This document shows, in pieces, positions 1-13,226 of a DNA stretch of 13,226 bases. The first letter of the stretch is position 1. The number at the start of each line of letters is the position of its first letter. The stretch lies in IMG/VR virus record IMGVR_UViG_2563366869_000004, one strand, 5' to 3'. Position numbers and translations under genes: made by a program. This stretch comes from a virus (lineage: Duplodnaviria > Heunggongvirae > Uroviricota > Caudoviricetes). The notes under the pieces are model-generated. The model made no database searches, was not told where the DNA came from, and saw nothing but the letters and a program-made list of their open reading frames with translations.

Positions 1-1284
1 TTACAGACTTCTGGAAGGTTGCGCAGCTCTTACAACACGCGGTTGATCTTCCGCAGCGTCTTCCAGCGCACTTAAATCACGGTCTTTCACTTCTGGCATT
101 TTCAGCGCAGAGATTAAACCAATCACTGAATATGCCATGATCATAATGGCGATCGGATACCAGGATTCCGTCATGGTGCAGAAAATACCCGCCAGGATAG
201 GACCAAAACCGGAAGCGATAAGACCACCAATTTCTTTAGAAATGGCCATCCGGGTAAAGCGGTTTTTACAGCCGAACATTTCTGCCATGGTAATGTTTTC
301 CAGAGCAAATAATCCCAGCACCGCACAGTTATGAATCACAATCAGTGCAACCATAATGGTGCTCGGGGCATAGCTTTTATCTACAATGATAGAAAGCATT
401 GGCCATGCCAGCACAATCGCGGAGGTATTCATAATAATATACGGGATCCGGCGACCAATTTTATCGGATAACCAACCAAGGAACGGAATGGTCATAAAGC
501 CGAGAATCGAACTAATCATCAATGCATCTGTTGGAATTGCTTTGTTAAACAATAACGTCTGCACTAAATAGCCTGCAAGGAAAGTCTGAATTAACCCGGA
601 GTTACCCGCCTGACCAAAACGCAGCCCTGTTGCCAGCCAGAAGGATTTGCTCTGGAACATGCTACCAGCAGGTGCAGGTTTTGCTGTGGGTTGGTTGCTG
701 TCATTAACCTTCTCAAAGACCGGGCTTTCTTTCAGATTCATACGTAACCAGATAGCAAAGACCATCACGACAACGCTCGCCAGGAACGGTATACGCCATC
801 CCCACGCCAGCAGTTCCTCTTTACTGAGAATGAAGAACATAAAGGCCCAGATTGCCGTTGCGCTCAAGGTTCCGCAGTTAGTTCCCATAGCTACAAATGA
901 GGAGATAATTCCGCGCTTACCTTTTGGTGCATATTCCGCCAGCATCGTACCGGCACCGGAAATTTCCGCACCTGCACCCAACCCCTGAATAATACGCAGC
1001 GTCACCAGCAAGATGGGGGCAAAAACACCAATCTGTGCATAGGTCGGTAACACACCAATTAAGGTGGTACAGATCCCCATCATGGTGATGGTAATAAAGA
1101 GCATTTTTTTACGCCCTATTCTGTCGCCCATTTTGCCGAAAATAAATGCTCCGACAATACGCGCCACATAACCTGCACCGTAGGTTCCCATTGCCAAAAT
1201 TAACGCCATTGCCGTTGATGATTCAGGAAAAAATATTTCATGAAACACCAACGCTGCGCCGAGCGAATATAACTGGAAATCCAT
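1..1284 (-). CDS. ydfJ: MFS (metabolite:H+ symporter-type) transporter, apparently N-terminally truncated at the prophage junction
   Basis: Complete 427-codon ORF (ATG at 1282-1284, TAA at 1-3). Translation has many hydrophobic spans and the MFS loop motif GKMGDRIGRKKML. It aligns from memory to ShiA/ProP-type symporters but starts at the equivalent of mid-TM1 (DFQLYSLGAALVF vs ShiA DFLLYGITAALVF), so about 30 N-terminal residues are missing. Weak SD upstream. The ydfJ name rests on the Qin-like context and my recollection that K-12 YdfJ is 427 aa. Confidence 0.8.
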   Translation of the reverse strand: MDFQLYSLGAALVFHEIFFPESSTAMALILAMGTYGAGYVARIVGAFIFGKMGDRIGRKKMLFITITMMGICTTLIGVLPTYAQIGVFAPILLVTLRIIQGLGAGAEISGAGTMLAEYAPKGKRGIISSFVAMGTNCGTLSATAIWAFMFFILSKEELLAWGWRIPFLASVVVMVFAIWLRMNLKESPVFEKVNDSNQPTAKPAPAGSMFQSKSFWLATGLRFGQAGNSGLIQTFLAGYLVQTLLFNKAIPTDALMISSILGFMTIPFLGWLSDKIGRRIPYIIMNTSAIVLAWPMLSIIVDKSYAPSTIMVALIVIHNCAVLGLFALENITMAEMFGCKNRFTRMAISKEIGGLIASGFGPILAGIFCTMTESWYPIAIMIMAYSVIGLISALKMPEVKDRDLSALEDAAEDQPRVVRAAQPSRSL

Positions 1285-2000
1285 AATTCACAGATGTTTT
1301 TTCTCATTCTGTGGTTTCCTTGGCGCTTTCTAGGTTTTTTCAGATAGTTACATTTTTTCAAAAGCATCCTGAGTTCGATCTTACTATCTATCTGTGGCCT
1401 ATTTCTGTCCCATATATGCCCCAAAAAACACCCCAACAGATAAGCAATCTTTTCATGGTGTTACGCGTAAAAACAATAACGGCTTGAAATTATTCAATAC
1501 ACTCTCGAAAGTGCATCAGCCAACCGCAGAACGTTATTGCATACAACGTTTCTGCGGCATATCACGAAACGATTACTTAATGACTGGGACTTCAGACCAC
1601 TCAATATCCGGTACAATTATGTATCAACGCAGTTTAACAACACCCTATATTTAATCCAGAGTGCGAGCAACGTTGTCCCTTTCTCTTTTGCACTCTTAAA
1701 ATATACGATTACTTAAGTGAAGATGCTTGACGAATCGCCAAATAAAACATCTTCATCAGCATAAAAATCCATATATGATTGAAAATTTAGTCATTAATAC
1801 CATTCATATCTGAATACTAACCTAATACGCTTACTAACCGTGAGAAATCTTTTTTTTCGACTTAATCACTCGAAATAAACTTTCACTCAATTGAAAACAA
1901 TTAGCTACAATTATCATTGCAATATCAAATCAAACATAACAACTTGCATAAATTCTCATGGGATACAGCATCAGTTGTGCCAAACACATAAGGAATTGAA

Positions 2001-2198
2001 ATGGACGGAGAAAGCTTTAACTTTGATGACAATGATATTGAATTTATTGCTTCAATGTATGCATCATGTAAATTATCAGGAAGTATCGCCCCCATAATGC
2101 ATATAATGGTTAGCATTCCAAAAAATAAGAAAAAACAATTCTACGAACGAGTTGAGCATTATTGTAGTTTATATTCCAATAAAAACCCACCTTCTTAA
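2001..2198 (+). CDS. Small hypothetical protein (65 aa) in the AT-rich region
   Basis: ATG at 2001 is preceded by AAGGAA with about 5 nt spacing. ORF of 65 codons, no recognisable motif. Two other ORFs overlap it in other frames, so coding status is uncertain. Confidence 0.3.
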   Translation: MDGESFNFDDNDIEFIASMYASCKLSGSIAPIMHIMVSIPKNKKKQFYERVEHYCSLYSNKNPPS

Positions 2199-2329
2199 AT
2201 TCGCTGCATTCTAGTGGATTCCATTAAGAAAACAATGACATACACTCAAACACATCTTTTTTATCAACAGTGAATTTCAGTTCGGCCAGTTTTTACCAGC
2301 TATTATAAAAATAGCACCCATATAAAGTT

Positions 2330-2430
2330 TTTACCCCACAGGTACAGCTGGCCATTCGATAACCGCACTAAGGAAGTGCCAACACGACATCAGCAAGACC
2401 CGATATTTCTTCCATGCCGCCAGCAACGAT
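2330..2430 (-). pseudogene. Remnant of a second tail-fibre-assembly (tfa) 3' end
   Basis: 2341-2430 aligns base-by-base, same orientation, with the 3' end of the intact tfa at 3031-3120 (ctggccattc, caacacg, cagcaa, acccgata, ttcttcca, ccagcaacga shared). Minus-strand translation gives ...IEWPAVPVG*, a Tfa C-terminus, but the frame has an internal stop upstream. No ORF of 60 aa or more covers it. Confidence 0.5.
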
Positions 2431-2901
2431 GTTAAGGTTAAATTAATTATAAAAAAATATATTATAATTCCATCTTCGCATTAAATTTTAACCTTTAATC
2501 TCCACACGGAACAAGTTGCATAGGTGACTATATTAAGAAAACTTATAACCACCAAAAAGATTTGCTTTGCAAGCAAAAACAGTGACCATTGACTCTAAGA
2601 AAATTCCGATCTATTGTTAGTGTCATCAAAGTTACTTAACAGTATTCCGAAATGAAAATACAAAGCAAGCTAATTGTCTTATTAAACATTATCATTGCAT
2701 TTATATTATTTGAGCTTTTAGCTCAAAAATTTGGTTTGAGTACATTATTTTAAAGCAAGATAAACAATATCGGGCACTCTAGTTTTTATAATTAACAATT
2801 AAACGCCCATAAAATGTTATTTACTTTTCTTCGCTATTGTCATATCTTAATATAGTGGCTTACGCCACTCTACTTTCATCATATTTTGTACGTTTATGTA
2901 C

Positions 2902-2932
2902 TCGCCATGAAGCTCTTTCATGGCGATTTTTT
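2902..2932 (+). terminator. Rho-independent terminator, plus-strand sense
   Basis: Perfect 10-bp stem tcgccatgaa / ttcatggcga with 5-nt loop gctct, followed directly by tttttt (2927-2932). No A-run on the other side, so it is unidirectional and convergent with tfa. Confidence 0.5.
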
Positions 2933-3018
2933 ATTCTTAATCCAAGAACATACTCCCTACCTATAGAAAAATCACTTTTTGAACAAAAGAATAACGTATT
3001 TAGGTAATCATTACGAAT

Positions 3019-3600
3019 TTACCCTATAGGTGCTACTGGCCATTCAATATCCGGTGCAGTTGTTGTATTAACACGGTTCAGCAACACCCGATACTTCTTC
3101 CAGGCTTCCAGCAACGAGATTTCTTCCTCCGTTGCAATTTCCAGATCTGCAGCATCCTGAAGCGGCGCAATATGCTCACTGGCTACCTGCATCAGGTTGT
3201 TTTTTGTTTCTTCCGCCTCCCGGATCCGGAACAGTTTTTCTGCTTCCGTATCCTTCACCCAGGCTGTGCCGTTCCACTTCTGATATTCCCCTTCCGGCGA
3301 TAACCAGGTGACATTTTCCGGTAACGAGCCAAGTTCAGAAATAAATAACGCGTCGCCGGAAGCCACGTCATAGACGGTTTTTCCCCGATGATCTTCAACG
3401 AGATGCCACGATGCCTCATCACTGTTGAAAACAGCCACAAAGCCAGCCGGAATATCTGGCGGTGCAATATCGGTACTGTTTGCTGGCAGACCTGTATGAG
3501 GCGGAATATATGCGTCACCTTCACCAATAAATTCATTAGTTCCGGCCAGCAGATTATAAATTTTTATGGTCCGTGGTTGTTCACTCATTCTGAATGCCAT
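3019..3600 (-). CDS. tfa: Tail fibre assembly protein Tfa (lambda Tfa-like)
   Basis: 193-aa ORF beginning [48 protein letters not shown], which matches lambda Tfa as I remember it; ends ...IEWPVAPIG. Its ATG overlaps the stop of the upstream stf ORF (TAATG arrangement at 3598-3602). Confidence 0.9.
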
Positions 3601-5297
3601 TATGCAAGCCTCACAATATAGTTAAATGCGATGTTTTTGACGGTGTTTTCCGCGTTACCAGCAGCGTTAACGGTGATGGTGTGTCCATGTGAACCAATCG
3701 CAACGGAGTGCGTATGAGCACCAATACCGACAGTATGCGCGTGTGCACCTGCAGATGCTGCTGTGCCGGACAGTGAGTGGCTATGGTTACCATCTGTACT
3801 GGTATTAGCTAACGCCCCCGTAGACATACCTACTGAGCCTTGTACACCCCAGGTATTTTGACCTGAGCTTGTATAACCATATTGATAAGTATCTTTAAAA
3901 ACACTGGGGTTAAATCGACGGCCATCTCTATGGCTGTGATTACCAGCTGCATTCGTGCTGCCACTTAAACTATGGGTATGCGCACCAGTGTTATTCGTGG
4001 ATTTAGTGCCGTAATCAAACGACGATGTGGTTTTCGTCCCCAAATCAGTACTGGATGCGCTGGCGCTGTGGGTATGCGATTTTATGCCGTCCTGTTCCTG
4101 AGACAATACGGCACGACCACTGGCGGGCTTGCCCTTAATCGTCCAGCCACGCATATCAGGGATCACGCCTGACGGATAAGCGGCTGCAAGTTTCGGGTAG
4201 GCAGATTTGTCAAAAGTCTGCCCCTGCATCAGGGCATAACCAGACGGAACGGTATCTGATGGCCACGGGATTGGTGCGCCGACTGGGTAGCTTTCTGGTG
4301 GAAGATTTTTCGAGGTATAAACTTCTGCCCAGTCTTCCTCAAAACCATAACCGTCTCTTGAAGAACGGTAGAACAGACCACCATTTCTGTAATGCGCCTT
4401 CATCTGCAAGGTCCGGCAACTTCCGACTCCGGTATAGAAGTTAACCAGAATATAGCTGTCGCCAGAGCGGGTGACATTATAAGCGCCTGATTCGGCATTC
4501 CAGGGAACGCCACCATCCGCATCGGCATATGTATCCGTTGCCCTTCTGGCAAAAGCAGCCACATGCGCGGCGGTTAAAGTAATATCTTTGGAACCATCAA
4601 ACTCAACACCAGAAACCCGTCTTGGCGTTTGCAGCTTTGTTGCTGTTAATGCATTACCGTTCAGACTTGCGGACAGTTTGGTTCCAATAACCAGTTCGCC
4701 GGTTGCGTTATCAATAGCAAACGGTCTTAATGTATTCCAGCCACCATAAACATCACCTTGATTGGTAAGCAGCAGGTAAGTTTTAGCGCCATCATTACGC
4801 CATAATGCCCCATACTCCCCACCTATCATTCGAATCTGATTACCACCACGCGCTACAATTTCGTCTGTGGCAAAAAGTTTTTTGCACGACAAGTTATCGT
4901 TAACGATTAATGAATGAGACTCATAAAAACCACGCCCACTCTTAAAATCAAGGATAACGTCCGCCGCGATACATTCAGTCGCCGGATTTGTTGCCCCAAA
5001 CTTATAGGTCGTATCATTAACAACGAGATCAGCACCAGGTGCGGATATTGACAGGCCATCTTCGATAAACGCAAAAACAGGGAAAGCAGCGCCATCAACA
5101 TAGAACACAGAGCGCAAATCATCGCCCTTATTACTCATCATTATTGAGTGGATGGCTCGTTCATTGTTTTGATATTGCCAGAACATTCCATAAGCATAAC
5201 GCCCCCTGTCAGTCCAGCCACCAGGCATAACAAATCCGTTATTCGAGCAACCCACCAGCGATATCAGCAGGAACAGGCAGATCACAGGTTTTTTCAC
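3600..5297 (-). CDS. stf: Side tail fibre protein (lambda Stf-like C-terminal HxH tip domain) with an N-terminal lipoprotein-type signal peptide; probable deletion fusion
   Basis: 565-codon ORF. The C-terminal region ([75 protein letters not shown] ... [29 protein letters not shown]) has the repeated HxH motifs and the ending of lambda Stf. The N-terminus [17 protein letters not shown] is a signal peptide with lipobox LVGC. The start is GTG at 5297 with GGGAGA about 9 nt upstream, in a different frame from and overlapping the 3' end of the Rz-like gene. About 565 aa is short for a lambda-type Stf. Confidence 0.8.
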
Positions 5298-5562
5298 GGC
5301 GGAGAATCTCCCGGTATTCGATTACGGTTTTTTCGGTGCTGGTGTCGATCAGGGAGTTAAGACTGTTGGCATGTTCTGCAACCTGATTGAATCGATTGAA
5401 GTTGAATGCCTGGGTGGCGATTACCTGCCCCAGCATAGAGTTGTCACTTCGCAGAACGTCGTTATCGCTCTGAAGATTACTGGCGTAAGAGCAACTCTTG
5501 ACGAGAGCGACCGAAAGGCCAGCAATAACGACAACGCCTATAAGATCCGGATTAATTTTCAT
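5239..5562 (-). CDS. Rz-like i-spanin (inner-membrane spanin component)
   Basis: ATG at 5560-5562 overlaps the endolysin TGA (ATGA overlap). 107 aa with an N-terminal TM segment ([15 protein letters not shown]) followed by a hydrophilic, probably coiled region; position immediately after the endolysin fits a spanin. The longer six-frame ORF (to 5655) would overlap the endolysin in another frame and is not preferred. Confidence 0.55.
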
Positions 5563-6101
5563 TGCTCCAGCCCCCAGCACGCCAGTGCGCTTTCCTGATC
5601 GCGCCGCTCGACCTGCCCATAACAGCCATTCTTCTGCCCTTTTGTCAGGCGGCAATCACGCCCACCATCTTTTATCCACCAGCGAATCGCCTCGCATGCC
5701 CCCTTACGATCATCGGCATTCAGCCGCTTATAAAACGTCGACGGGAAACACTTACCGGGGCCAATGTTATAGGGACAAAATGACGCTATACCCGCTTTCT
5801 GTGGTTCGGTCAGTGGCACTTTAATATTGCGCTCCACCCATGCCAGCGCCTTATCCCGTTCAATGGCGTTAACCTGGTCGCATTTTTCCTTCGACAGTTT
5901 CATACCGGGAAAAACGGGTTTTCCATCCACCACCGTGGCACCCCGACAGATGGTCCAGATGCCGGAACCATCGCGGTATGCCGTTGTGTGGTTACCTTCT
6001 TTTTCATTCAGAAACTGGTCGAGAATATCAGGCGCAGGCGCACCGACGGCAATCAGTGCCAGAACGGCAGCCGACAGGCCGTATCTGATTTTTACGTTCA
6101 T
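5559..6101 (-). CDS. SAR endolysin (T4-lysozyme-like, GH24)
   Basis: 180-aa ORF, ATG at 6099-6101. N-terminal hydrophobic, Gly/Ala-rich signal-anchor-release-type segment (LSAAVLALIAVGAPAP) followed by the lysozyme catalytic motif E-x8-D-x5-T (EGNHTTAYRDGSGIWTICRGAT). Weak SD. Confidence 0.9.
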   Translation of the reverse strand: MNVKIRYGLSAAVLALIAVGAPAPDILDQFLNEKEGNHTTAYRDGSGIWTICRGATVVDGKPVFPGMKLSKEKCDQVNAIERDKALAWVERNIKVPLTEPQKAGIASFCPYNIGPGKCFPSTFYKRLNADDRKGACEAIRWWIKDGGRDCRLTKGQKNGCYGQVERRDQESALACWGLEQ

Positions 6102-6206
6102 GGATTTTTATCAGGATTTATCGGTTTCTGAACCCTGGATATGTTTATCTGTCCCGGCCTGTTGAATCAGGCAAGGAATAGTTAAATACAATAGAGAGGA
6201 TTGTTT

Positions 6207-6479
6207 ATGGACAATAGCACCATTTCTCTACAGGAGTTGCTCGACTGCATTTCCAAGCTTCGGGATGATGTAAATGCCCTTACTGTCGCATTTTCATATC
6301 TGGCATTCTCAATTCCCAAGGAACAAATGCAACCAACACTGGCATCGCTCCAGCTTGAATCACTCAACCCCAAATGGTCCCAGCAACAACAAAATTCTTT
6401 CAAGTGGCTGGCGATATTACTGGAAGAAAAATATGCTGGTGAAATTACCATTTCGGCGGAGTCTTCAGAGAACCAGTAA
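6207..6479 (+). CDS. Small hypothetical protein (90 aa) encoded opposite to the lysis genes
   Basis: ATG at 6207 preceded by AGAGAGGA (6193-6200) at ideal spacing; TAA at 6477-6479. MDNSTISLQELLDCISKLRDDVNALTVAF... has balanced composition and no motif I recognise. Its 3' end overlaps the 3' end of the convergent YdfR-like ORF by 35 nt. Confidence 0.5.
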   Translation: MDNSTISLQELLDCISKLRDDVNALTVAFSYLAFSIPKEQMQPTLASLQLESLNPKWSQQQQNSFKWLAILLEEKYAGEITISAESSENQ

Positions 6480-6789
6480 TTCTTCCCGGTAGCTTTCCTT
6501 TGTAGGTTATCCACACATTCTGCGCCTCTAAAATTATGGGGCGCTTTTCCGGCGACAGCTCATCCCCTTCACATAACCCGGCAGCAACATCCAGGAAGAC
6601 CTGTCTGATGCTCCTTCTGGCTGCTGCCTCATAAAACTCCAGCGCGGCACCTTCAACACGGTCCAGCGAGATGTCCAGGTCAAAAATTTCACCGTCAAAG
6701 CGTTCTTTGTCCCGTAACGCTAAAGTTACCGTAACTTTATTCTCAAAATTGCGGATCCCTTTCACAATCAGTTCATATTTTTGAGTCAT
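6445..6789 (-). CDS. YdfR-like (DUF1327-type) lysis-cassette protein
   Basis: 114-aa ORF, ATG at 6787-6789 with GGGGAGAG SD, starting 4 nt after the holin stop. It occupies the position between S21-type holin and endolysin that ydfR holds in Qin. Family assignment is by position and memory, not by a sequence match. The C-terminal third may read into inserted DNA. Confidence 0.55.
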   Translation of the reverse strand: MTQKYELIVKGIRNFENKVTVTLALRDKERFDGEIFDLDISLDRVEGAALEFYEAAARRSIRQVFLDVAAGLCEGDELSPEKRPIILEAQNVWITYKGKLPGRITGSLKTPPKW

Positions 6790-6793
6790 TGAA

Positions 6794-7009
6794 TTACTCT
6801 CCCCGTGCAGCCTTACGCTTGTCTTCTTTAATCTTGAAATAAAGGTTTGTCAGGTACGTCAGCAGGCCAAATACCAGGCTACCCAGCACACCTATTGCTG
6901 CCCACTGTGAGGGCGTGACTTTATCGAGCAGCTGTAAAAACCAGTAGCCAGCACTGCCTGCGGAGGTGCCGTAGGCAATGCCTGTTGAAATTTTGTCCAT
7001 GGATTTCAT
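6794..7009 (-). CDS. Phage 21 S-type pinholin with dual-start motif
   Basis: 71-aa [74 protein letters not shown], close to S21 as I remember it. Met1-Lys2-Ser3-Met4 dual start (ATG at 7007-7009 and 6998-7000). Strong SD GGAGGTGA upstream. The six-frame ORF extends to 7066 but the RBS supports 7009. Confidence 0.9.
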
Positions 7010-7113
7010 AGCCTCACCTCCGCACGGAACGGATGGCATAGTTATTATGTGTAGGCTTCCAGACACATCAATCGGAGCCTTAATTGATATATATGCTGGA
7101 GACGATGCAATAT

Positions 7114-7135
7114 AAAAAGCTCGCCGTAGCGAGCT
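7114..7135 (-). terminator. Rho-independent terminator downstream of the lipoprotein pair
   Basis: Minus-sense RNA forms stem AGCUCGC / GCGAGCU with loop UACG, followed by UUUUUAUAUU (plus-strand A-run 7114-7118 adjoining hairpin 7119-7134). It lies between the lipoprotein gene end (7261) and the holin start (7009). Confidence 0.5.
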
Positions 7136-7260
7136 AATAAAATGTATTTCTCTGATATTATGTTTATTTGTATTAGCTCAGACTTGACATCACAGGTTTC
7201 GTATATAGAACATCATCAAATCTGTCAGTTTGCTATGAATGAGATATAGTAATTGAAGAG

Positions 7261-7656
7261 CTAACCTCGCATGTCAAAGCCAGATTTCTGAAAATCTCTG
7301 TAGACTTCCGGATTGTTGAAGGCCGGAAATTTGGCTTTATGAGCTGCGGACTTTATCGCTTCGCAATAGGCTTTATCACCGTTACTGGTAGATATTTTTA
7401 ACGCCGTGCCATCCTGAGAGAATTCCATATGCAACCTGCATTTTTTCCCTTTCCAGTTATGCGGCTCATCAAGTTTGGCATTAATTGCAGCTCTGATTCC
7501 CCGCGCTTGCGCCCCCCATTCATCCTGATCATCCCAGCGTCCTGAACTGCAACTACCTGTAGCAGTAGTTTTGTGGCAATCTGAAGGGTGTAAAGGTGTG
7601 CATCCCGCAACAAAACCGACCCAAAAAGTCAACATAACGATTTTCTTTAATCCCAC
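7261..7656 (-). CDS. Lipoprotein with divergent TolA C-terminal (domain III)-like domain, paralog of the upstream gene
   Basis: GTG at 7656 preceded by GAGGAG at 6 nt; TAG at 7261-7263. Signal peptide MGLKKIVMLTFWVGFVAGC with lipobox VAGC and Thr at +2. C-terminus KKCRLHMEFSQDGTALKISTSNGDKAYCEAIKSAAHKAKFPAFNNPEVYRDFQKSGFDM aligns with the upstream paralog and with the TolA domain III C-terminus, both Cys conserved. Confidence 0.75.
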   Translation of the reverse strand: MGLKKIVMLTFWVGFVAGCTPLHPSDCHKTTATGSCSSGRWDDQDEWGAQARGIRAAINAKLDEPHNWKGKKCRLHMEFSQDGTALKISTSNGDKAYCEAIKSAAHKAKFPAFNNPEVYRDFQKSGFDMRG

Positions 7657-7806
7657 TTCTTGCTCCTCAATCCATTAAAATCTCAGCAATAGTAGTTGTT
7701 ACGTCCGCCACTGGCTCAGAGCTGACTATCCGCTAGATTTAGCTCAGTGCCGTAGTTGTGTCAGAACAAACCTAAGCCGAAACCGTTTATTACAAAACAA
7801 TAAATA

Positions 7807-8235
7807 TCAGGGTTTAAAATCCAGCACCCCATTTTGAAATACTTTATATACTTCCGGCGAAGGGGGGGCAGGTATATCAGCATTCTTTATCGCATTCATC
7901 GCTTCACGACATAAATCGAGGTCTCCACTTTCTCTTTTAACCTCCAGTAGAAGGCCATTCGGGGCCATATGCATTCTCAGTGTACACTCTTTTCCTGAAT
8001 ACTTACTCGCATCCCCGAACTGTTTTTCGATGGCGCTCTTGATTTGATGGGCATACAGACGGATATCCTCACTAACATCAGAAGTACGTTCAGATGAACT
8101 CACATACTGTGTCTCTATTGCTTTATCGGAGTAATATGATGTACGGTCATGATAATTTGTCGATACAGCATCAGTGCACCCGATAATAATCCCACTAATA
8201 ATCAACGTAAGAATTGATGCGCTACGAAAACCCAT
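7807..8235 (-). CDS. Lipoprotein with TolA C-terminal (domain III)-like domain
   Basis: ATG at 8233-8235 preceded by GAGGA at about 5 nt. Signal peptide MGFRSASILTLIISGIIIGC with lipobox IIGC and Thr at +2. C-terminal 85 aa YAHQIKSAIEKQFGDASKYSGKECTLRMHMAPNGLLLEVKRESGDLDLCREAMNAIKNADIPAPPSPEVYKVFQNGVLDFKP matches the end of E. coli TolA as I remember it (YAGQIKSAIESKFYDASSYAGKTCTLRIKLAPDGMLLDIKPEGGDPALCQAALAAAKLAKIPKPPSQAVYEVFKNAPLDFKP), including both Cys and the terminal LDFKP. Confidence 0.85.
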   Translation of the reverse strand: MGFRSASILTLIISGIIIGCTDAVSTNYHDRTSYYSDKAIETQYVSSSERTSDVSEDIRLYAHQIKSAIEKQFGDASKYSGKECTLRMHMAPNGLLLEVKRESGDLDLCREAMNAIKNADIPAPPSPEVYKVFQNGVLDFKP

Positions 8236-8264
8236 TTTTCCTCACATATGTCATATAGTAAAGG

Positions 8265-8294
8265 ATTATATATACCGTTGTTTTGGACGCTCAA
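8265..8294 (-). promoter_or_regulatory. Candidate sigma70 promoter for the lipoprotein pair
   Basis: Minus-sense TTGAGC (-35, plus 8289-8294), 18-nt spacer, TATAAT (-10, plus 8265-8270), about 25 nt upstream of the ATG at 8235. Pattern match only. Confidence 0.35.
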
Positions 8295-8768
8295 ACAGCG
8301 AATCAGATCAAATAAAACGCACATTTGTTAACATTTACACAAAGTCTGCGTGGGATATTCTGAAAGAATATCCATAATGTGGAGAGAATCTATTGAAGTG
8401 CATGGTGCCGGGGGCCTCCCGGTGAATTCAGTACCAGCACCTGAATCCACGATTATCCCATATACCTACTCGCTGATTGCCCCTCCGCACAGGGGGATTC
8501 ACCATGCCAGTTTCTTTTAACAAACTCCCCGCAAACCAGAGAACAGTCAACCGCCTGAATTGTGAAGTATTTAAAAATTTCTCCCGCTAACTGATACCCG
8601 GCTAACAGTCTGGCGTTTTCTTTTTCAGCAACGGGAAAGCAACAACTACCACACCCGCCACCAGCACACCGTCAGCCAGCACTGACATTATCCGGCTGCT
8701 GCAATGCCATTCACAAAAACAGTAAGCAATCACTTTTTACCGTAACAGGTGATAATCCAGATATGTAT

Positions 8769-9122
8769 CTACCCCAGATGAGTAATCCGAAGTTCATCCA
8801 TACCACAGGTCCTGGCTATTCTGTTGTACTCCTGAACAAGAGCAAATAATTCTGAATTAGCAACCATGAACTCATCGCAAACCCTCTGTATAGCATCACT
8901 ATTCAGAATAATAACGTCTCTTCCCGAAAGACGATCAGGAGCACAGAACAAAACTGTCAAACGGCTGAAGGCCTTTGCTCGTGCTGCATTGACTATATCA
9001 ATACGCTGCCTAAGGATGAAACACCCCGACGCCTCATCAATATTCACTCTACCCACACCATATGAATGATAAATATTTAATGCTGAAAAAACCATTAGAC
9101 CGTATAACAAACACTCAATCAA
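8769..9122 (-). CDS. Hypothetical ORF (117 codons) of doubtful coding status
   Basis: Largest ORF between the tRNAs and the lipoprotein genes, same strand as the late operon. Starts with TTG; first in-frame ATG at 9093-9095; no convincing SD; no recognisable motif. Confidence 0.25.
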   Translation of the reverse strand: MIECLLYGLMVFSALNIYHSYGVGRVNIDEASGCFILRQRIDIVNAARAKAFSRLTVLFCAPDRLSGRDVIILNSDAIQRVCDEFMVANSELFALVQEYNRIARTCGMDELRITHLG

Positions 9123-9232
9123 TACTTAACAGAACTTTTATTTTTGACAAACATATAATGTTTTCAACAATATCCTGAGCCAGGTATATTCCAGTATAAG
9201 GCTCTGCCGGAAGGAATCTGGAAGAATGAATA

Positions 9233-9309
9233 TGGCGCGCTGTACTGGATTCGAACCAGTGACCGATTGCTTAGAAGGCAATTGCTCTGTCCGGCTGAGC
9301 TAACAACGC
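9233..9309 (-). tRNA. tRNA-Arg (anticodon UCU), phage-borne
   Basis: Minus-sense 77 nt folds as a cloverleaf: acceptor GCGTTGT/ACAGCGC (one G-U), D-arm GCTC-AGCCGGACA-GAGC, anticodon stem-loop ATTGC-CTTCTAA-GCAAT (UCU at 34-36), 5-nt variable loop, T-arm ACTGG-TTCGAAT-CCAGT, discriminator G, CCA encoded. Confidence 0.9.
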
Positions 9310-9339
9310 TGAATACCGATAATGGACCGCCATCGGGGA

Positions 9340-9357
9340 CCCCCCCCCCCCCCCCCC
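9340..9357. repeat. Homopolymeric C18 tract (G18 in the late transcript) between the two tRNA genes
   Basis: Direct count: one C at 9340 plus 17 C at 9341-9357, flanked by ggggac on the left and gca on the right. Confidence 0.9.
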
Positions 9358-9418
9358 GCACCAACAACCCTGTTATCGTGTCGTCTGCTCTTCCTGATAA
9401 GCTCATGGCGGTTTGTGA

Positions 9419-9494
9419 TGGTGGCCCTTGCTGGATTTGAACCAGCGACCTGGCGATTATGAGTCGCTCGCTCTCACCACTGAGCTAAAGGACC
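9419..9494 (-). tRNA. tRNA with CAU anticodon; closest to tRNA-Ile2 (lysidine, ileX-like), elongator Met not excluded
   Basis: Minus-sense 76 nt GGTCCTTTAGCTCAGTGGTGAGAGCGAGCGACTCATAATCGCCAGGTCGCTGGTTCAAATCCAGCAAGGGCCACCA. Acceptor GGTCCTT/AAGGGCC (one G-U), anticodon loop CTCATAA, T-loop TTCAAAT, CCA encoded. Strong resemblance to E. coli ileX as I recall it. Confidence 0.9.
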
Positions 9495-9530
9495 GGGAGC
9501 AGAATAATAACGGTCCGTAATTAATTCCGC

Positions 9531-9557
9531 AATAAAAAACCCGCTCGGTGGCGGGTT
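9531..9557 (-). terminator. tR'-like intrinsic terminator just downstream of the Q gene
   Basis: Minus-sense RNA stem AACCCGC / GCGGGUU with loop CACCGA, followed by UUUUUUAUU (plus-strand A-run 9534-9539). It sits between the pR'-like promoter and the first tRNA, as tR' does in lambdoid phages. Confidence 0.55.
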
Positions 9558-9604
9558 GTAGAAACTCTTCTAACGTCAGGTATAAAAAGCCCATCTTTAT
9601 GACG

Positions 9605-9632
9605 AATTTACCACAGATTCCGGAAAAATCAA
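9605..9632 (-). promoter_or_regulatory. pR'-like late promoter (putative Q-utilisation region)
   Basis: Minus-sense TTGATT (-35, plus 9627-9632), 16-nt spacer, TAAATT (-10, plus 9605-9610), immediately 3' of the Q-like gene stop (9638) and about 40 nt upstream of the terminator hairpin. TAAATT is the -10 I recall for lambda pR'. Confidence 0.45.
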
Positions 9633-9637
9633 CCTTG

Positions 9638-10459
9638 TTACCTAGTTACCTTTTTTAACTGCCGCTCAGCCCATGCTTCTTCAATATCAAACCGGGTCAC
9701 CAGCGCATCATAGAATTTCTTAACTGTTTTTTCCCATGACGCGCGTGTTATCTGGTTTGTCACCTCGCATATAGCATTAAATGCCTCCGTTGATGGTAGT
9801 CTTTCATAGCCACGACCACCACAACGCTGGCAGTCTCTGATAACAGGCATACCACGTTTTACCGACTCTTCACGGTGAATGGCGACACCACGCCCACGGC
9901 AATCCTTACAGGCGGTGGAAACCTCACCCTTTCCGCCACACTCCGGACAGGCAACTTTTACCACCTCCCTGACTTTTTTCCATTCTTCCCAGTAAGACGG
10001 ATACACACCTTTCGTACACTTTGCCCATACCGGCGGCTTACCATCCGGATACTGGACCTTGTTTGTAAAAACTACGCTTTCAATAAATTTTTCCCCATAG
10101 CAACAAGGGCACTGCTTTTTACTCGCTGCGCTGCGGGCATAATCCTCAAAAGCGTACGAAGCCATAATGCGCATCACTAACGGTTTTATTTCTGCCGGAA
10201 GTTTTCTCAACGCCGCCACACGATCGCACCGACTGAGTGCATAATCTGCCAGTAATTCTGTTGCCCGCGCCCTGTCATTCATACTGATGCCCATTTTCCC
10301 CAGGAACGCAGAAAACCCCATCTCAGCCCGATTCTGTGTCATGCCCTGCGCGGCCATCACATCAGTGATACTCAGCGCATCTTTTGACGTTGAGGCCGAT
10401 GCATCGGTCAGGCAAGGGGATTTTGGGGAGTAGTATTTCGGTAAATCTTCCAGTTTCAT
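9638..10459 (-). CDS. Q-like late antiterminator candidate (QuuQ-like) with cysteine-rich repeats
   Basis: 273-aa ORF whose ATG (10457-10459) overlaps the rusA stop (ATGA). It sits between rusA and the pR'/tR' pair, the canonical Q slot. Contains CPCCYGEK, CPECGGKG, CKDCRGRG and CQRCGGRG repeats. The Q call is by position and size; I could not confirm it by sequence. Confidence 0.6.
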   Translation of the reverse strand: MKLEDLPKYYSPKSPCLTDASASTSKDALSITDVMAAQGMTQNRAEMGFSAFLGKMGISMNDRARATELLADYALSRCDRVAALRKLPAEIKPLVMRIMASYAFEDYARSAASKKQCPCCYGEKFIESVVFTNKVQYPDGKPPVWAKCTKGVYPSYWEEWKKVREVVKVACPECGGKGEVSTACKDCRGRGVAIHREESVKRGMPVIRDCQRCGGRGYERLPSTEAFNAICEVTNQITRASWEKTVKKFYDALVTRFDIEEAWAERQLKKVTR

Positions 10460-10830
10460 TTTTTGACCTGCTCTTCATGCATTATGGGGTAAATCTTCAC
10501 CCCCATACGTCCACCAGATACTGGCTGACCACGAACGATATTGATTTCATCAAACTGCTCATCGTCCATTAACACTCCCGCATGCGTCAGCGCATCCAGC
10601 GGTGCTTTAAGGATATTGTCCAGGTCGCGACGACGCTTATCCGGTGGCTCTGCAATCACCTTTATCGCCAGCCTTCCGGACAGGCTTAATTTCAGCCGCT
10701 GCTGGCGAACAATAAGCGCCACAGCCCGGCGATAACGCTTTCCCTCCTCCGAGATAAAATATGTGCTGCCACGGCGTCGCCAGTAAGTGTTCACCGTCGG
10801 CGGGTAAGGTAAAACCAAATCTATGAGCAT
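10456..10830 (-). CDS. rusA: RusA Holliday-junction resolvase
   Basis: 124-aa ORF with AGAGGTGA SD 4 nt before the ATG at 10828-10830. Contains the RusA-family core DKRRRDLDNILKAPLDALTHAGVLMDDEQ (compare K-12 RusA DRRRRDLDN...KAAFDALTKAGFWLDD as I recall it). Confidence 0.85.
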   Translation of the reverse strand: MLIDLVLPYPPTVNTYWRRRGSTYFISEEGKRYRRAVALIVRQQRLKLSLSGRLAIKVIAEPPDKRRRDLDNILKAPLDALTHAGVLMDDEQFDEINIVRGQPVSGGRMGVKIYPIMHEEQVKK

Positions 10831-10842
10831 CAGTCACCTCTT

Positions 10843-11790
10843 TTACCCAAGCACGCCAGTTGCAAAGGCGTGATCAAGAAAACGAAAGATTAAATCAACC
10901 TGAGAACCATGCTTTTCTTCGAACGCCAGCGGATCCGCATGAAGCTCGTTGTGATGCTCCCGACACAGCGGTAGCGTGAAAATATCGTGAGATTTTGTCC
11001 CCATTCCGCCCTGACCATGACCAATCAGGTGATGGGGATCGTCGGCTGGCTTACCACAACACGCACACGGCTGTGTCTTCACCCAGCGTGTGTATTTCTC
11101 GTTAACCCAGCGGCGACGTTTAGGTCGTTTCATAAAAGATTCCGGAGACTCAGGATCAACGGCAATGCTTACCACCGTCTTTTCCTGTAGTGGGTGTTGT
11201 TCCTGGTGGGCGTGAGGCAACAGTGCAAGATTTTTTGTGCGCTGTTTCAGTATGCTGGTGGCGGTCTGCTCTCCCGGTACGATGTCGCTTTCACGGTACA
11301 TTGAGCGGATTTTTTCCGCACGCAACCCCAGCGAACGACGTAATACCGCTTCCGGTAGCGCGTCCGCCACCTGATTGCGGACCGCCCACCAGGATAATTC
11401 AGCCAGAGATAATTCACGCTCCTGCGTACCGCTTATTGCGTGACCGATGACGTCAATCATCCATGCTGACAGGTTTTGATGAGCAACTTGCTCGAGTGAT
11501 TCGGATGTCTGGTCACGCAGCTGGTTGTCGCAGTGCCAGCACAACACCATTGCGCCGGTACCATAACGGTGAATGACGGTTTCGCTGTGATGATAATCGC
11601 CGTGTGGCCACTGGCAGGATTTAATATGGCGCAACAGCCAGTCAGACAATGCACCAGCACCACCAGCAGCACGAATCACCCGTGCGTTACTGAAAAACGG
11701 CAGCAATGTTTTGTCTTCCACCAGCGGCTGGCGAGCGGCAGGAACGACCCCGGACGGCAGATTACGCATGCTTTTCGGTTCCGGCTCCAC
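10843..11790 (-). CDS. DUF968-family (YdfU-like) prophage protein with C-terminal HNH-like Cys/His cluster
   Basis: 315-codon ORF ending 12 nt upstream of rusA. C-terminal CACCGKPADDPHHLIGHGQGG...CREHHNELH cluster. Start is uncertain: GTG at 11790 has no SD and the first ATG at 11769 has poor context, so the gene may be 5'-truncated. Confidence 0.7.
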   Translation of the reverse strand: MEPEPKSMRNLPSGVVPAARQPLVEDKTLLPFFSNARVIRAAGGAGALSDWLLRHIKSCQWPHGDYHHSETVIHRYGTGAMVLCWHCDNQLRDQTSESLEQVAHQNLSAWMIDVIGHAISGTQERELSLAELSWWAVRNQVADALPEAVLRRSLGLRAEKIRSMYRESDIVPGEQTATSILKQRTKNLALLPHAHQEQHPLQEKTVVSIAVDPESPESFMKRPKRRRWVNEKYTRWVKTQPCACCGKPADDPHHLIGHGQGGMGTKSHDIFTLPLCREHHNELHADPLAFEEKHGSQVDLIFRFLDHAFATGVLG

Positions 11791-11812
11791 CAGTAACCGG
11801 GTATTGTGGAAT

Positions 11813-11911
11813 ATGCCATGGGATAACAGTCCATGCTTTTACAACCTGGAAGAAATTGATCGCTGGATTGAGCGCCAGGCATCAGCGAGACCAAGACGTC
11901 ATCTTACTTGA
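11813..11911 (+). pseudogene. Possible excisionase (xis) 3' remnant upstream of int
   Basis: Plus-strand frame ending TGA at 11909-11911, 20 nt before the int ATG, reads ...MPWDNSPCFYNLEEIDRWIERQASARPRRHLT*. The EEIDRWIERQ end resembles the C-terminal helix of Xis/AlpA-family proteins. The longer frame (from 11711) starts with TTG and overlaps the DUF968 N-terminus. Weak call. Confidence 0.25.
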
Positions 11912-11945
11912 CTAAAAGCCACACTAACTAATGAGAGAAGTTGAA

Positions 11946-13226
11946 ATGAAATATCCGACAGGCGTGGAAAACCATGGAGGGAAATTACGTATCTGGTTTG
12001 TTTATAAAGGCGTAAGAGTCAGGGAAAATCTGGGGGTTCCTGACACAGCAAAAAACAGGCGCGTTGCAGGTGAACTACGCGCCTCTGTTTGTTACGCAAT
12101 AAAAACTGGTGTTTTCGACTATGCAAAACAGTTTCCCTCCTCACGCAATCTGGAAAAATTTGGTGAGGCCCGACAAGATTTAACCATAAAAGAACTGGCT
12201 GAAAAATTTCTGGCACTGAAAGAAACTGAAGTCGCCAAAACATCACTCAACACATACCGTGCCGTCATCAAAAATATCCTGAGCATAATCGGTGAAAAAA
12301 ATCTTGCCTCATCGATTAATAAAGAAAAATTACTGGAGGTTCGTAAAGAGTTACTGACTGGATACCAGATCCCCAAAAGTAACTATATTGTTACACAACC
12401 AGGGAGATCGGCTGTAACTGTAAATAATTACATGACAAATCTTAACGCCGTGTTCCAGTTTGGTGTTGATAACGGTTACCTGGCAGATAATCCGTTTAAG
12501 GGGATCTCGCCATTAAAGGAATCAAGAACCATTCCGGATCCTCTTTCGCGGGAAGAATTTATCCGTCTTATCGATGCGTGCAGAAATCAGCAAGCAAAAA
12601 ATTTATGGTGTGTTTCTGTTTATACTGGCGTTCGCCCTGGTGAGCTGTGTGCACTTGGATGGGAGGACATAGATCTGAAAAATGGAACAATGATGATCAG
12701 GAGAAATTTAGCAAAAGACCGTTTCACGGTACCAAAAACACAGGCGGGAACCAATCGGGTCATTCATCTTATTAAGCCAGCAATCGACGCTCTCCGGAGT
12801 CAGATGACATTAACGAGACTGAGCAAAGAGCATATCATTGATGTTCACCTCAGAGAGTATGGCAGAACAGAAAAACATAAATGCACCTTTGTTTTTCAAC
12901 CTGAAGTGTCAGCGAGAGTAAAAAATTATGGTGACCATTTTACCGTTGACTCAATAAGGCAGATGTGGGACGCAGCGATAAAACGTGCCGGACTCCGCCA
13001 TCGAAAATCATATCAGTCGAGACATACTTATGCCTGCTGGTCGCTGACAGCTGGTGCTAACCCGGCATTTATAGCAAACCAGATGGGCCATGCAGATGCG
13101 CAAATGGTATTTCAGGTATACGGAAAATGGATGTCTGAAAACAATAATGCACAGGTAGCTTTGTTAAATACACAGTTAAGCGAGTTTGCCCCAACCATGC
13201 CCCATAACGAAGCAATGAAAAATTAA
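11946..13226 (+). CDS. int: Tyrosine site-specific integrase (lambda-integrase family)
   Basis: Full ORF to TAA at 13224-13226. Catalytic-region motifs near the C-terminus (RHTYACWSL...HADAQMVFQVYGKW). N-terminus MKYPTGVENHGGKLRIWF resembles the prophage IntR/IntS type. Start chosen at ATG 11946 (purine-rich GAGAGAAG upstream); an in-frame ATG at 11931 is the alternative. Confidence 0.9.
   Translation: MKYPTGVENHGGKLRIWFVYKGVRVRENLGVPDTAKNRRVAGELRASVCYAIKTGVFDYAKQFPSSRNLEKFGEARQDLTIKELAEKFLALKETEVAKTSLNTYRAVIKNILSIIGEKNLASSINKEKLLEVRKELLTGYQIPKSNYIVTQPGRSAVTVNNYMTNLNAVFQFGVDNGYLADNPFKGISPLKESRTIPDPLSREEFIRLIDACRNQQAKNLWCVSVYTGVRPGELCALGWEDIDLKNGTMMIRRNLAKDRFTVPKTQAGTNRVIHLIKPAIDALRSQMTLTRLSKEHIIDVHLREYGRTEKHKCTFVFQPEVSARVKNYGDHFTVDSIRQMWDAAIKRAGLRHRKSYQSRHTYACWSLTAGANPAFIANQMGHADAQMVFQVYGKWMSENNNAQVALLNTQLSEFAPTMPHNEAMKN

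Follow-up and report, generated by a model that had tools for sequence, protein, structure and literature searches.

The close apposition of an integrase gene and a DUF968 gene described here most probably marks the scar of a deletion of about 11.3 kb in a Qin-type cryptic prophage, a reading to which we assign a probability of roughly 95% on the basis of sequence comparisons. The stretch of DNA analyzed, referred to as the window, comprises 13,226 nucleotides. Near its right end the first possible start codon of the DUF968 gene, a GTG at position 11790 on the minus strand (ORF 10843-11790, 315 amino acids), and the ATG of the integrase gene int at 11946 on the plus strand face away from each other at a distance of 156 bp. 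This spacing on opposite strands had been pointed out in the first-pass annotation and agrees with the ORF coordinates. As proposed there, the early and immunity module is gone and a truncated DUF968 gene is fused to a truncated excisionase gene (xis), and colinearity with the flanks of the intact region in E. coli GPEC620-622 (L004) shows that this is a deletion. The features required for the following sections are:

1-1284, minus strand: ydfJ' remnant (host MFS transporter gene), 427-aa ORF, first 28 codons absent; left chromosomal border of the prophage
1276-1286, no strand: left att core, 11 bp, GAAATCCATAA, with an exact repeat at L001 25263-25273
9638-10459, minus strand: Q-type antiterminator gene (Pfam Antiterm, E=2.6e-55; RefSeq 'antitermination protein')
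10456-10830, minus strand: rusA Holliday-junction resolvase gene (Pfam RusA, E=2.6e-17)
10843-11813, minus strand: 5'-truncated DUF968/ydfU gene, codons 28-349 kept, codons 1-27 deleted
11812-11813, no strand: deletion junction, 2-bp TA microhomology common to both parental flanks
11813-11911, plus strand: xis stub, comprising codons 52-83 with the stop codon; the complete DUF1233-type excisionase has 83 aa
11946-13226, plus strand: tyrosine integrase of the IntQ type, intact, 426 aa (Pfam Arm-DNA-bind_2, Phage_integrase)

A prophage remnant in ydfJ with a single pair of att sites

A megablast search with the entire window as query, covering 5,426 complete E. coli genomes, placed it between ydfI/ydfJ and rspB, and more than 50 of these genomes carry its left part. 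In the window and in the annotated sister loci, the ydfJ remnant is followed by a tail-fibre-assembly gene, a truncated tail-fibre gene, a lysis cassette (lysozyme, a ydfR-like gene and holin), two genes with a TolA C-terminal domain, two tRNAs, the Q antiterminator gene, rusA, the DUF968/ydfU gene, the xis fragment and the integrase gene, and then by rspB. The remnant carries a second scar, at which a fragment of a lysis gene is fused to the truncated tail-fibre gene. The ydfJ' gene is labeled 'missing N-terminus' in the RefSeq annotation and its 1284-bp extent is the same as that of b1543 in K-12. The missing N-terminal codons (MTIEKHERSTKDLVKAAVSGWLGTALEF) were found beyond int in locus L001, with rspB after them. 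Qin has been described as an insertion into the 5' end of ydfJ by which 28 codons were lost, and its size ranges from 11,280 to 97,450 bp across strains (Ramisetty & Sudhakari 2019, PMC6379469). Between equivalent positions of the att core (L001 13276 to 25263) the remnant measures about 12.0 kb, which is near the lower end of this published range.

The first-pass annotation had suggested a search for att core repeats downstream of int and at the 5' end of the MFS transporter gene, and repeats were indeed found at both places. The second copy of GAAATCCATAA lies 38 bp past the int stop codon, just outside the window, and was read from L001, a genome 99.95% identical to the window. Read on the minus strand, the core is TTATGGATTTC, which codes for M-D-F. 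The host DNA beyond the right core encodes the absent YdfJ N-terminus as MTIEKHERSTKDLVKAAVSGWLGTALEF-MDF, and the remnant in the window starts with MDFQLYS. The attP of the viable phage HannyBb reads ...CTCTTGAAATCCATAATTCACAGGTG... (longer stretch, ...CTCTTGAAATCCATAATTCACAGGTGTTTT...). Its int-side arm corresponds to the sequence after int in L001 and its other arm to the window from position 1287 onward, positions 1276-1557 of the window being 86.8% identical to HannyBb 24092-23805. Joined to each other, the ends of the remnant restore the HannyBb attP, which shows that int is part of the same element. Furthermore, an artificial empty site was constructed by joining window positions 1000-1286 to L001 25274-25500. 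This reconstructed attB is uninterrupted in 2006 of the 5426 genomes at 99.8% identity, and the annotation there gives ydfJ and then rspB. With its insertion at the 5' end of ydfJ, rspB as neighbour, direct att repeats, empty sites in other genomes and an IntQ-type integrase on the side proximal to rspB, the window is, as judged from these sequence features, a cryptic lambdoid prophage of the Qin type in E. coli.

The integrase gene itself appears intact. An alternative ATG upstream, at 11931, would extend the protein to 431 aa. Both domains score above the cut-offs (Arm-DNA-bind_2, PF12167, E=5.6e-24; Phage_integrase, PF00589, E=3.8e-18), and the motifs YTGVRPGEL, SRHTYA, MGHA and QVYGKW are found at residues 226, 358, 380 and 390, respectively. 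The protein thus combines an arm-binding domain with the predicted catalytic R...HxxR...H...Y residues of an integrase of the lambda Int type. It is identical in 423 of 426 positions to the integrase of HannyBb and is the same protein, WP_000876976.1, as in the sister strains GPEC620-622 and MSHS 472 (L002). At the nucleotide level the gene is 99.66% identical to the intQ pseudogene of K-12 over 1160 bp.

The junction between the DUF968 and excisionase genes

By BLAST, positions 1-11813 of the window align to 18001-29814 of GPEC620-622 with 99.96% identity, and positions 11812-13226 align to 41122-42536 with 100% identity. Relative to this strain 11,307 bp (29815-41121) are absent from the window, and relative to MSHS 472 the difference amounts to 5,971 bp. 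The junction was determined from a three-way alignment in which the window was set against both parental flanks for each of the two strains. The BLAST coordinates agree with this alignment and were reproduced with the L001 genome. Across the junction, the window reads ...GTGGAATA followed by TGCCATGG..., the left parent ...GTGGAATA followed by CCGGCATGG..., and the right parent ...GACGGTA followed by TGCCATGG.... The sequences on both sides are thus colinear with the parents and have only a short TA in common at the breakpoint, and the junction alignment revealed no inserted DNA, IS or att site there.

Both genes at the junction lack their 5' parts, as had been supposed before from the sequence of the window; their intact homologues encode proteins of 349 and 83 aa. 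For the DUF968 gene, reading of the upstream sequence confirmed a GTG start without a Shine-Dalgarno sequence: no AGGAG-like sequence is present 5' of the GTG, which is directly preceded by ...CACAATACCCGGTTACTG. The homology, in contrast, runs past this ORF start to 11813. Here the frame reads, after a stop codon, KHGLLSHGI and then FHNTRLLVEPEPK..., and it matches the intact 349-aa protein of GPEC620-622, MSHS 472 and WWCOL-315 (L003) from F28 on. The native start codon and N-terminus are therefore missing, as the deleted codons 1-27 include the annotated GTG start as well as the alternative start at Met25, which is apparently the one used in the HannyBb annotation. The DUF968 domain as such is complete (PF06147 profile positions 1-171 of 171, E=3.4e-77). 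RefSeq labels the fragment 'incomplete; missing N-terminus'. Because the DUF968 homology reaches 11813, the real gap between DUF968-derived DNA and int is 132 bp, and it is filled completely by the xis stub (11813-11911) and the 34-bp spacer that natively separates xis from int.

The excisionase identity of the short frame in this gap, suggested in the first-pass annotation, could be substantiated, but the C-terminal end quoted there, '...IERQ', is wrong, since the frame is 11 codons longer. The plus-strand frame that stops at 11911 contains ...MPWDNSPCFYNLEEIDRWIERQASARPRRHLT directly before its stop codon, and it is identical in 32 of 32 positions to residues 52-83 of the 83-aa Xis of GPEC620-622. 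Instead of a complete DUF1233 domain of about 70 residues, only positions 49-69 of the 70 in the Pfam DUF1233 profile ('putative excisionase') are matched (E=1.6e-6), residues 1-51 of the 83 being deleted. Judged by this comparison, the stub is a gene fragment and not a functional member of the DUF1233 (XisR-like) family. RefSeq describes it as 'xisR excisionase family protein ... missing N-terminus'. A search of the PDB sequences with the intact Xis gave one weak match (2kvv, 'putative excisionase', E=0.0039), which is too weak to map DNA binding. We therefore call the stub non-functional because of the loss of 51 of the 83 residues.

According to the annotation of GPEC620-622, supplemented by Rfam, the lost interval contains on the DUF968 side the 5' end of the DUF968 gene, a small hypothetical gene and hokD with the sok antisense RNA. 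A small ORF in this interval is called rem-like. Two hypothetical genes, a DUF977 gene and a gene for a 356-aa hypothetical protein follow in the middle, in a region that includes replication genes. Next comes ydaT, followed by the immunity genes, one for a regulator of the Cro/CI family and one of the LexA family (cI-like). Towards xis, ydfA, ydfB, ydfC, the DicF RNA, dicB and ydfD are encoded, and the interval ends with the gene for an 823-aa 3'-5' exonuclease (RecE-like) and codons 1-51 of xis.

The frequency of this arrangement was assessed with a query of 451 bp centred on the junction. Only two of the 5426 complete E. coli genomes, those of the chicken isolates FDN-11 and GPEC1240, cover the query fully, while one or both of its halves are present at separate places in another 3,889 genomes. 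Among 50,697 phage records none spans the junction. Both genomes that contain it carry the same two truncated genes, and in GPEC1240, which differs from the window by 5 mismatches and one gap, the RefSeq/PGAP annotation already treats both fragments as pseudogenes. Given these differences, the window probably derives from a different strain within that lineage. Since the junction is present in two independent complete assemblies in addition to the window, a misassembly is unlikely. For each of the two sides, intact counterparts with 99.9-100% nucleotide identity are found in thousands of E. coli genomes, and for this reason the juxtaposition is not a chance pattern.

Three other origins of the juxtaposition were considered. 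The integrase could stem from a separate mobile element inserted beside a prophage remnant, as had been held out as an alternative in the first-pass annotation. All that speaks for such an origin is that int and a nin-region gene are unusually close and point away from each other. However, the 11-bp core flanks the remnant as a whole and the ends of the remnant restore one attP, that of HannyBb; ydfJ is split, with one half on either outer side of the remnant, and the 2006 genomes mentioned above contain the reconstructed attB without interruption; an identical Int closes the longer version of the prophage in GPEC620-622 and MSHS 472; and the Qin feature of K-12 has the same boundaries. No second pair of att sites was seen between 11813 and 13226. 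The flanking core, the rebuilt attP, the empty sites and the Int of the sister strains refute a separate element, to which we give next to no probability. The same extremely low probability applies to a natural compact element, i.e. a satellite or minimal integrative element in which int is regularly located beside DUF968-rusA-Q. Apart from the compactness of the 12-kb remnant nothing points in this direction, and it is rejected in view of the truncation of both genes at the junction. The absence of the junction from all 50,697 phage records and its rarity among the genomes (2 of 5426), as well as the second scar between the lysis and tail-fibre genes, argue against it too. Relatives that naturally carry int beside an intact DUF968 gene, which had been named as evidence against a deletion, were found neither among these genomes nor among these phage records.

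If the loss of DNA as such is accepted, it might have been brought about by Int, acting on secondary att-like sites. On the DUF968 side, the deleted sequence begins with CCGGCATGGATTCAC and there contains ATGGATT, a match of 7 nt to the att core in its complementary form, TTATGGATTTC. The TA crossover, however, lies outside this heptamer and the partner flank, CCATGGGATAAC, is without it, on which grounds Int-mediated recombination was rejected. In addition, a 7-mer noticed post hoc near a breakpoint is by our own estimate a chance event of about 2%, and it has no arm-site context here. We regard this route as very improbable. The 2-bp microhomology and a breakpoint free of IS and att sequences point instead to illegitimate recombination, e.g. 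slippage or end-joining at TA, which would have removed the approximately 11.3 kb from codon 27 of DUF968/ydfU to codon 51 of xis in a prophage that was defective before.

Deletion history of the sister alleles

Two sister strains also lack parts of the early region. In MSHS 472 positions 35526-40855 of the GPEC620-622 sequence are missing, so that a truncated ydaT is fused just upstream of xis, which is also frameshifted. WWCOL-315 lacks 36894-41640, i.e. ydfA through the first third of int. By comparison of the sequences, these two deletions are independent of each other. The allele in the window cannot be derived from that of WWCOL-315, as int is complete in the window. The deletion of MSHS 472, however, is nested in the interval lost from the window, and therefore the allele of the window descends either from an ancestor of the GPEC620-622 type or from an intermediate of the MSHS 472 type. 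In the latter case, the history would comprise two or more steps, with a deletion of the MSHS 472 type (and the frameshift in xis) coming first and a deletion of 5,971 bp later. The position of the MSHS 472 deletion (L004 35526-40855) within the lost interval is equally compatible with such a history, and deletions in the early region are recurrent, as three different ones are found in near-identical backgrounds. On the other hand, a single event is more parsimonious than two steps, and over 1,415 bp at its right end the window is identical to GPEC620-622 but shows one difference from MSHS 472, although neither point is decisive. With 0 mismatches to the former and 1 to the latter, the few available SNPs seem to slightly favour an origin from the GPEC620-622 type. 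Overall, we consider a stepwise loss unlikely, and the deletion of about 11.3 kb is preferred as the origin of the junction.

All three deletions (L004 29815-41121, 35526-40855 and 36894-41640) remove the block from ydfA-C via DicF, dicB and ydfD to the exonuclease gene. An intact integrase, 99.3% identical to that of viable phages, is kept in two of the three deletion alleles. DicB is a division inhibitor and YdfD a lysis protein, and together with DicF they represent toxic early genes. The three deletions could reflect a purging of these genes under weak immunity control, and int might have been kept for action in trans on incoming phages of the mEp460/HannyBb type with the same att site, but we consider such a scenario improbable.

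Consequences for the remnant and comparison with known elements

The loss of the complete early region would leave a remnant without immunity, replication or recombination functions. Although Int looks intact, the remnant should not excise because Xis has lost 51 of its 83 residues, and the integrase gene would thus be intact but orphaned. DUF968'-rusA-Q and the downstream cargo and lysis genes would be deprived of their early promoter and may be silent or, as suggested in the first-pass annotation, depend on read-through; DUF968' has also lost its start codon. In a scan of L001 23500-25500 (junction, int and the rspB side) for sigma-70 promoters and terminators, 3 promoter-like and 3 terminator-like sites were obtained, as compared to 3.5 and 2.4 in shuffled sequence. 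The promoter-like sites thus do not exceed the chance level, and none of the sites lies within the 132 bp between junction and int, which, coming from a simple scan, is weak evidence.

The Qin prophage of K-12 (b1543-b1579, ydfJ to intQ') shares with the window the site in ydfJ, the 1284-bp remnant of this gene, the att boundaries and the neighbouring rspB. The annotated boundaries of this prophage are located 9 bp within the ydfJ remnant and 37 bp beyond intQ'. The backbone of ydfU, Q, lysis and tfa genes is homologous in both, with the ydfU homologue being only 86.5% identical. The K-12 element, however, keeps the early region that is missing from the window (rem, hokD, relBE, dicC/dicA, ydfA-C, dicF, dicB, ydfD and ydfE'). 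Its intQ is truncated and xis is absent due to an IS2-associated lesion, whereas the window contains a full-length int and a xis stub. The cargo also differs, with TolA-C-domain genes and tRNAs in the window and csp genes in K-12.

Much closer are GPEC620-622, MSHS 472 and WWCOL-315, which are 99.96-100% identical to the window beside the junction. The RusA, Q and lysis proteins of the sister strains are identical to those of the window, and the first of these strains retains the 11,307 bp. Among viable lambdoid phages, HannyBb, Tritos, PhiR42_1 and mEp460_ev081 have a xis-int segment 99-100% identical to the corresponding sequence and the same attP core, and their DUF968/HNH-Q module is 91.7% identical to that of the window. 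For HannyBb the values are 99.6% for the xis-int segment and 91.7% for the DUF968/HNH gene. In this phage, about 9.9 kb separate int from the DUF968/HNH gene, and this interval is occupied by exonuclease, repressor, cro-like, cII-like and O-like genes. In contrast to the remnant of about 12 kb in the window, these phages have complete genomes of 45-49 kb, and HannyBb possesses the full set of head and tail genes.

The gradual removal of modules by deletion, together with the loss of the functions needed for excision, has been described as prophage 'grounding' or domestication (Ramisetty & Sudhakari 2019, PMC6379469). The window does not differ in principle from the cases treated there and adds one more allele. 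The deletion allele is thus ordinary, amply documented prophage decay of an already known kind. As a clean, base-resolved example of prophage grounding, its value lies mainly in the correct annotation of the locus. For the isolates that bear the junction, it means that hokD/sok, DicF, dicB and ydfD are absent from the remnant, which would probably have lost the ability to excise, and for this group of prophages it means that deletions of this kind have arisen independently more than once among close relatives.

ydfJ remnant and left arm

Copies of the att core are found at window positions 1276-1286 and at 25263-25273 of L001, the genome locus matching the window. Read on the minus strand, the core codes for Met-Asp-Phe of YdfJ, and therefore ydfJ keeps an ATG-started ORF of 427 codons after integration, lacking the promoter and the first 28 codons. 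This remnant is open in the window, whereas in the chicken isolate GPEC1240 it carries an internal stop according to the PGAP annotation.

The approximately 1.7 kb from the att core to the tail-fibre-assembly gene (1287-3018) contain a single annotated ORF, which is small and hypothetical (2001-2198). About 280 bp at the att-core end are 86.8% identical to the attP arm of the lambdoid phage HannyBb. Both HannyBb and K-12 carry an invertase gene (pin) on this side, which is absent from the window.

Scar between lysis region and tail fibre

A second deletion scar is present within 3600-5562, with its breakpoint near 5242-5249, where two annotated fragments adjoin:

3600-5249: tail-fibre gene, missing N-terminus
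5242-5562: lysis-region ORF, missing C-terminus

As the lysis-ORF fragment abuts the truncated tail-fibre gene, the head, tail and packaging genes have all been lost. The scar is common to the many genomes matching window 1-11813 and is apparently older than the int-side deletion.

TolA-domain ORFs and RNA genes

Two Rfam matches in the window exceeded the gathering threshold; they are listed here with the TolA-domain ORFs and tRNA genes.

3059-3257, minus: 'IS009' (Rfam, 225 bits), within the tail-fibre-assembly gene
7261-7656, minus: TolA C-terminal domain ORF 1 (Pfam, E=1.3e-14)
7807-8235, minus: TolA C-terminal domain ORF 2 (Pfam, E=2.4e-23)
8346-8536, minus: STnc100 sRNA (Rfam, 110 bits), upstream of the TolA-domain genes
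9233-9309, minus: phage-borne tRNA-Arg (anticodon TCT), directly downstream of Q
9419-9494, minus: phage-borne tRNA (anticodon CAT), directly downstream of Q

Both TolA-domain ORFs, situated between the holin gene and Q with the tRNAs, have lipoprotein-like N-termini (...FVAGC and ...IIIGC) and may represent moron or superinfection-exclusion cargo. PGAP treats the second as a truncated tolA pseudogene (7807-8067); nonetheless, it is open in the window, with an ATG start and 142 aa.

The CAT-anticodon tRNA is called Met by ARAGORN and Ile by PGAP; the latter fits a lysidine-modified Ile2 tRNA. Late regions of the lambdoid and Stx-like kind typically carry tRNA genes at such a position.

Recurrent early-region deletions

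Two further independent deletions were found in near-identical sister prophages. Relative to L004, the longer allele, MSHS 472 (L002) is missing 35526-40855 (junction L002 25519-25523) and WWCOL-315 (L003) is missing 36894-41640 (junction L003 21890-21891). ydfA-C, DicF, dicB, ydfD and the exonuclease gene were lost in all three deletions, that of the window included. Either the region from ydfA-C to the exonuclease gene is a hot spot for deletion, or selection favours its loss.
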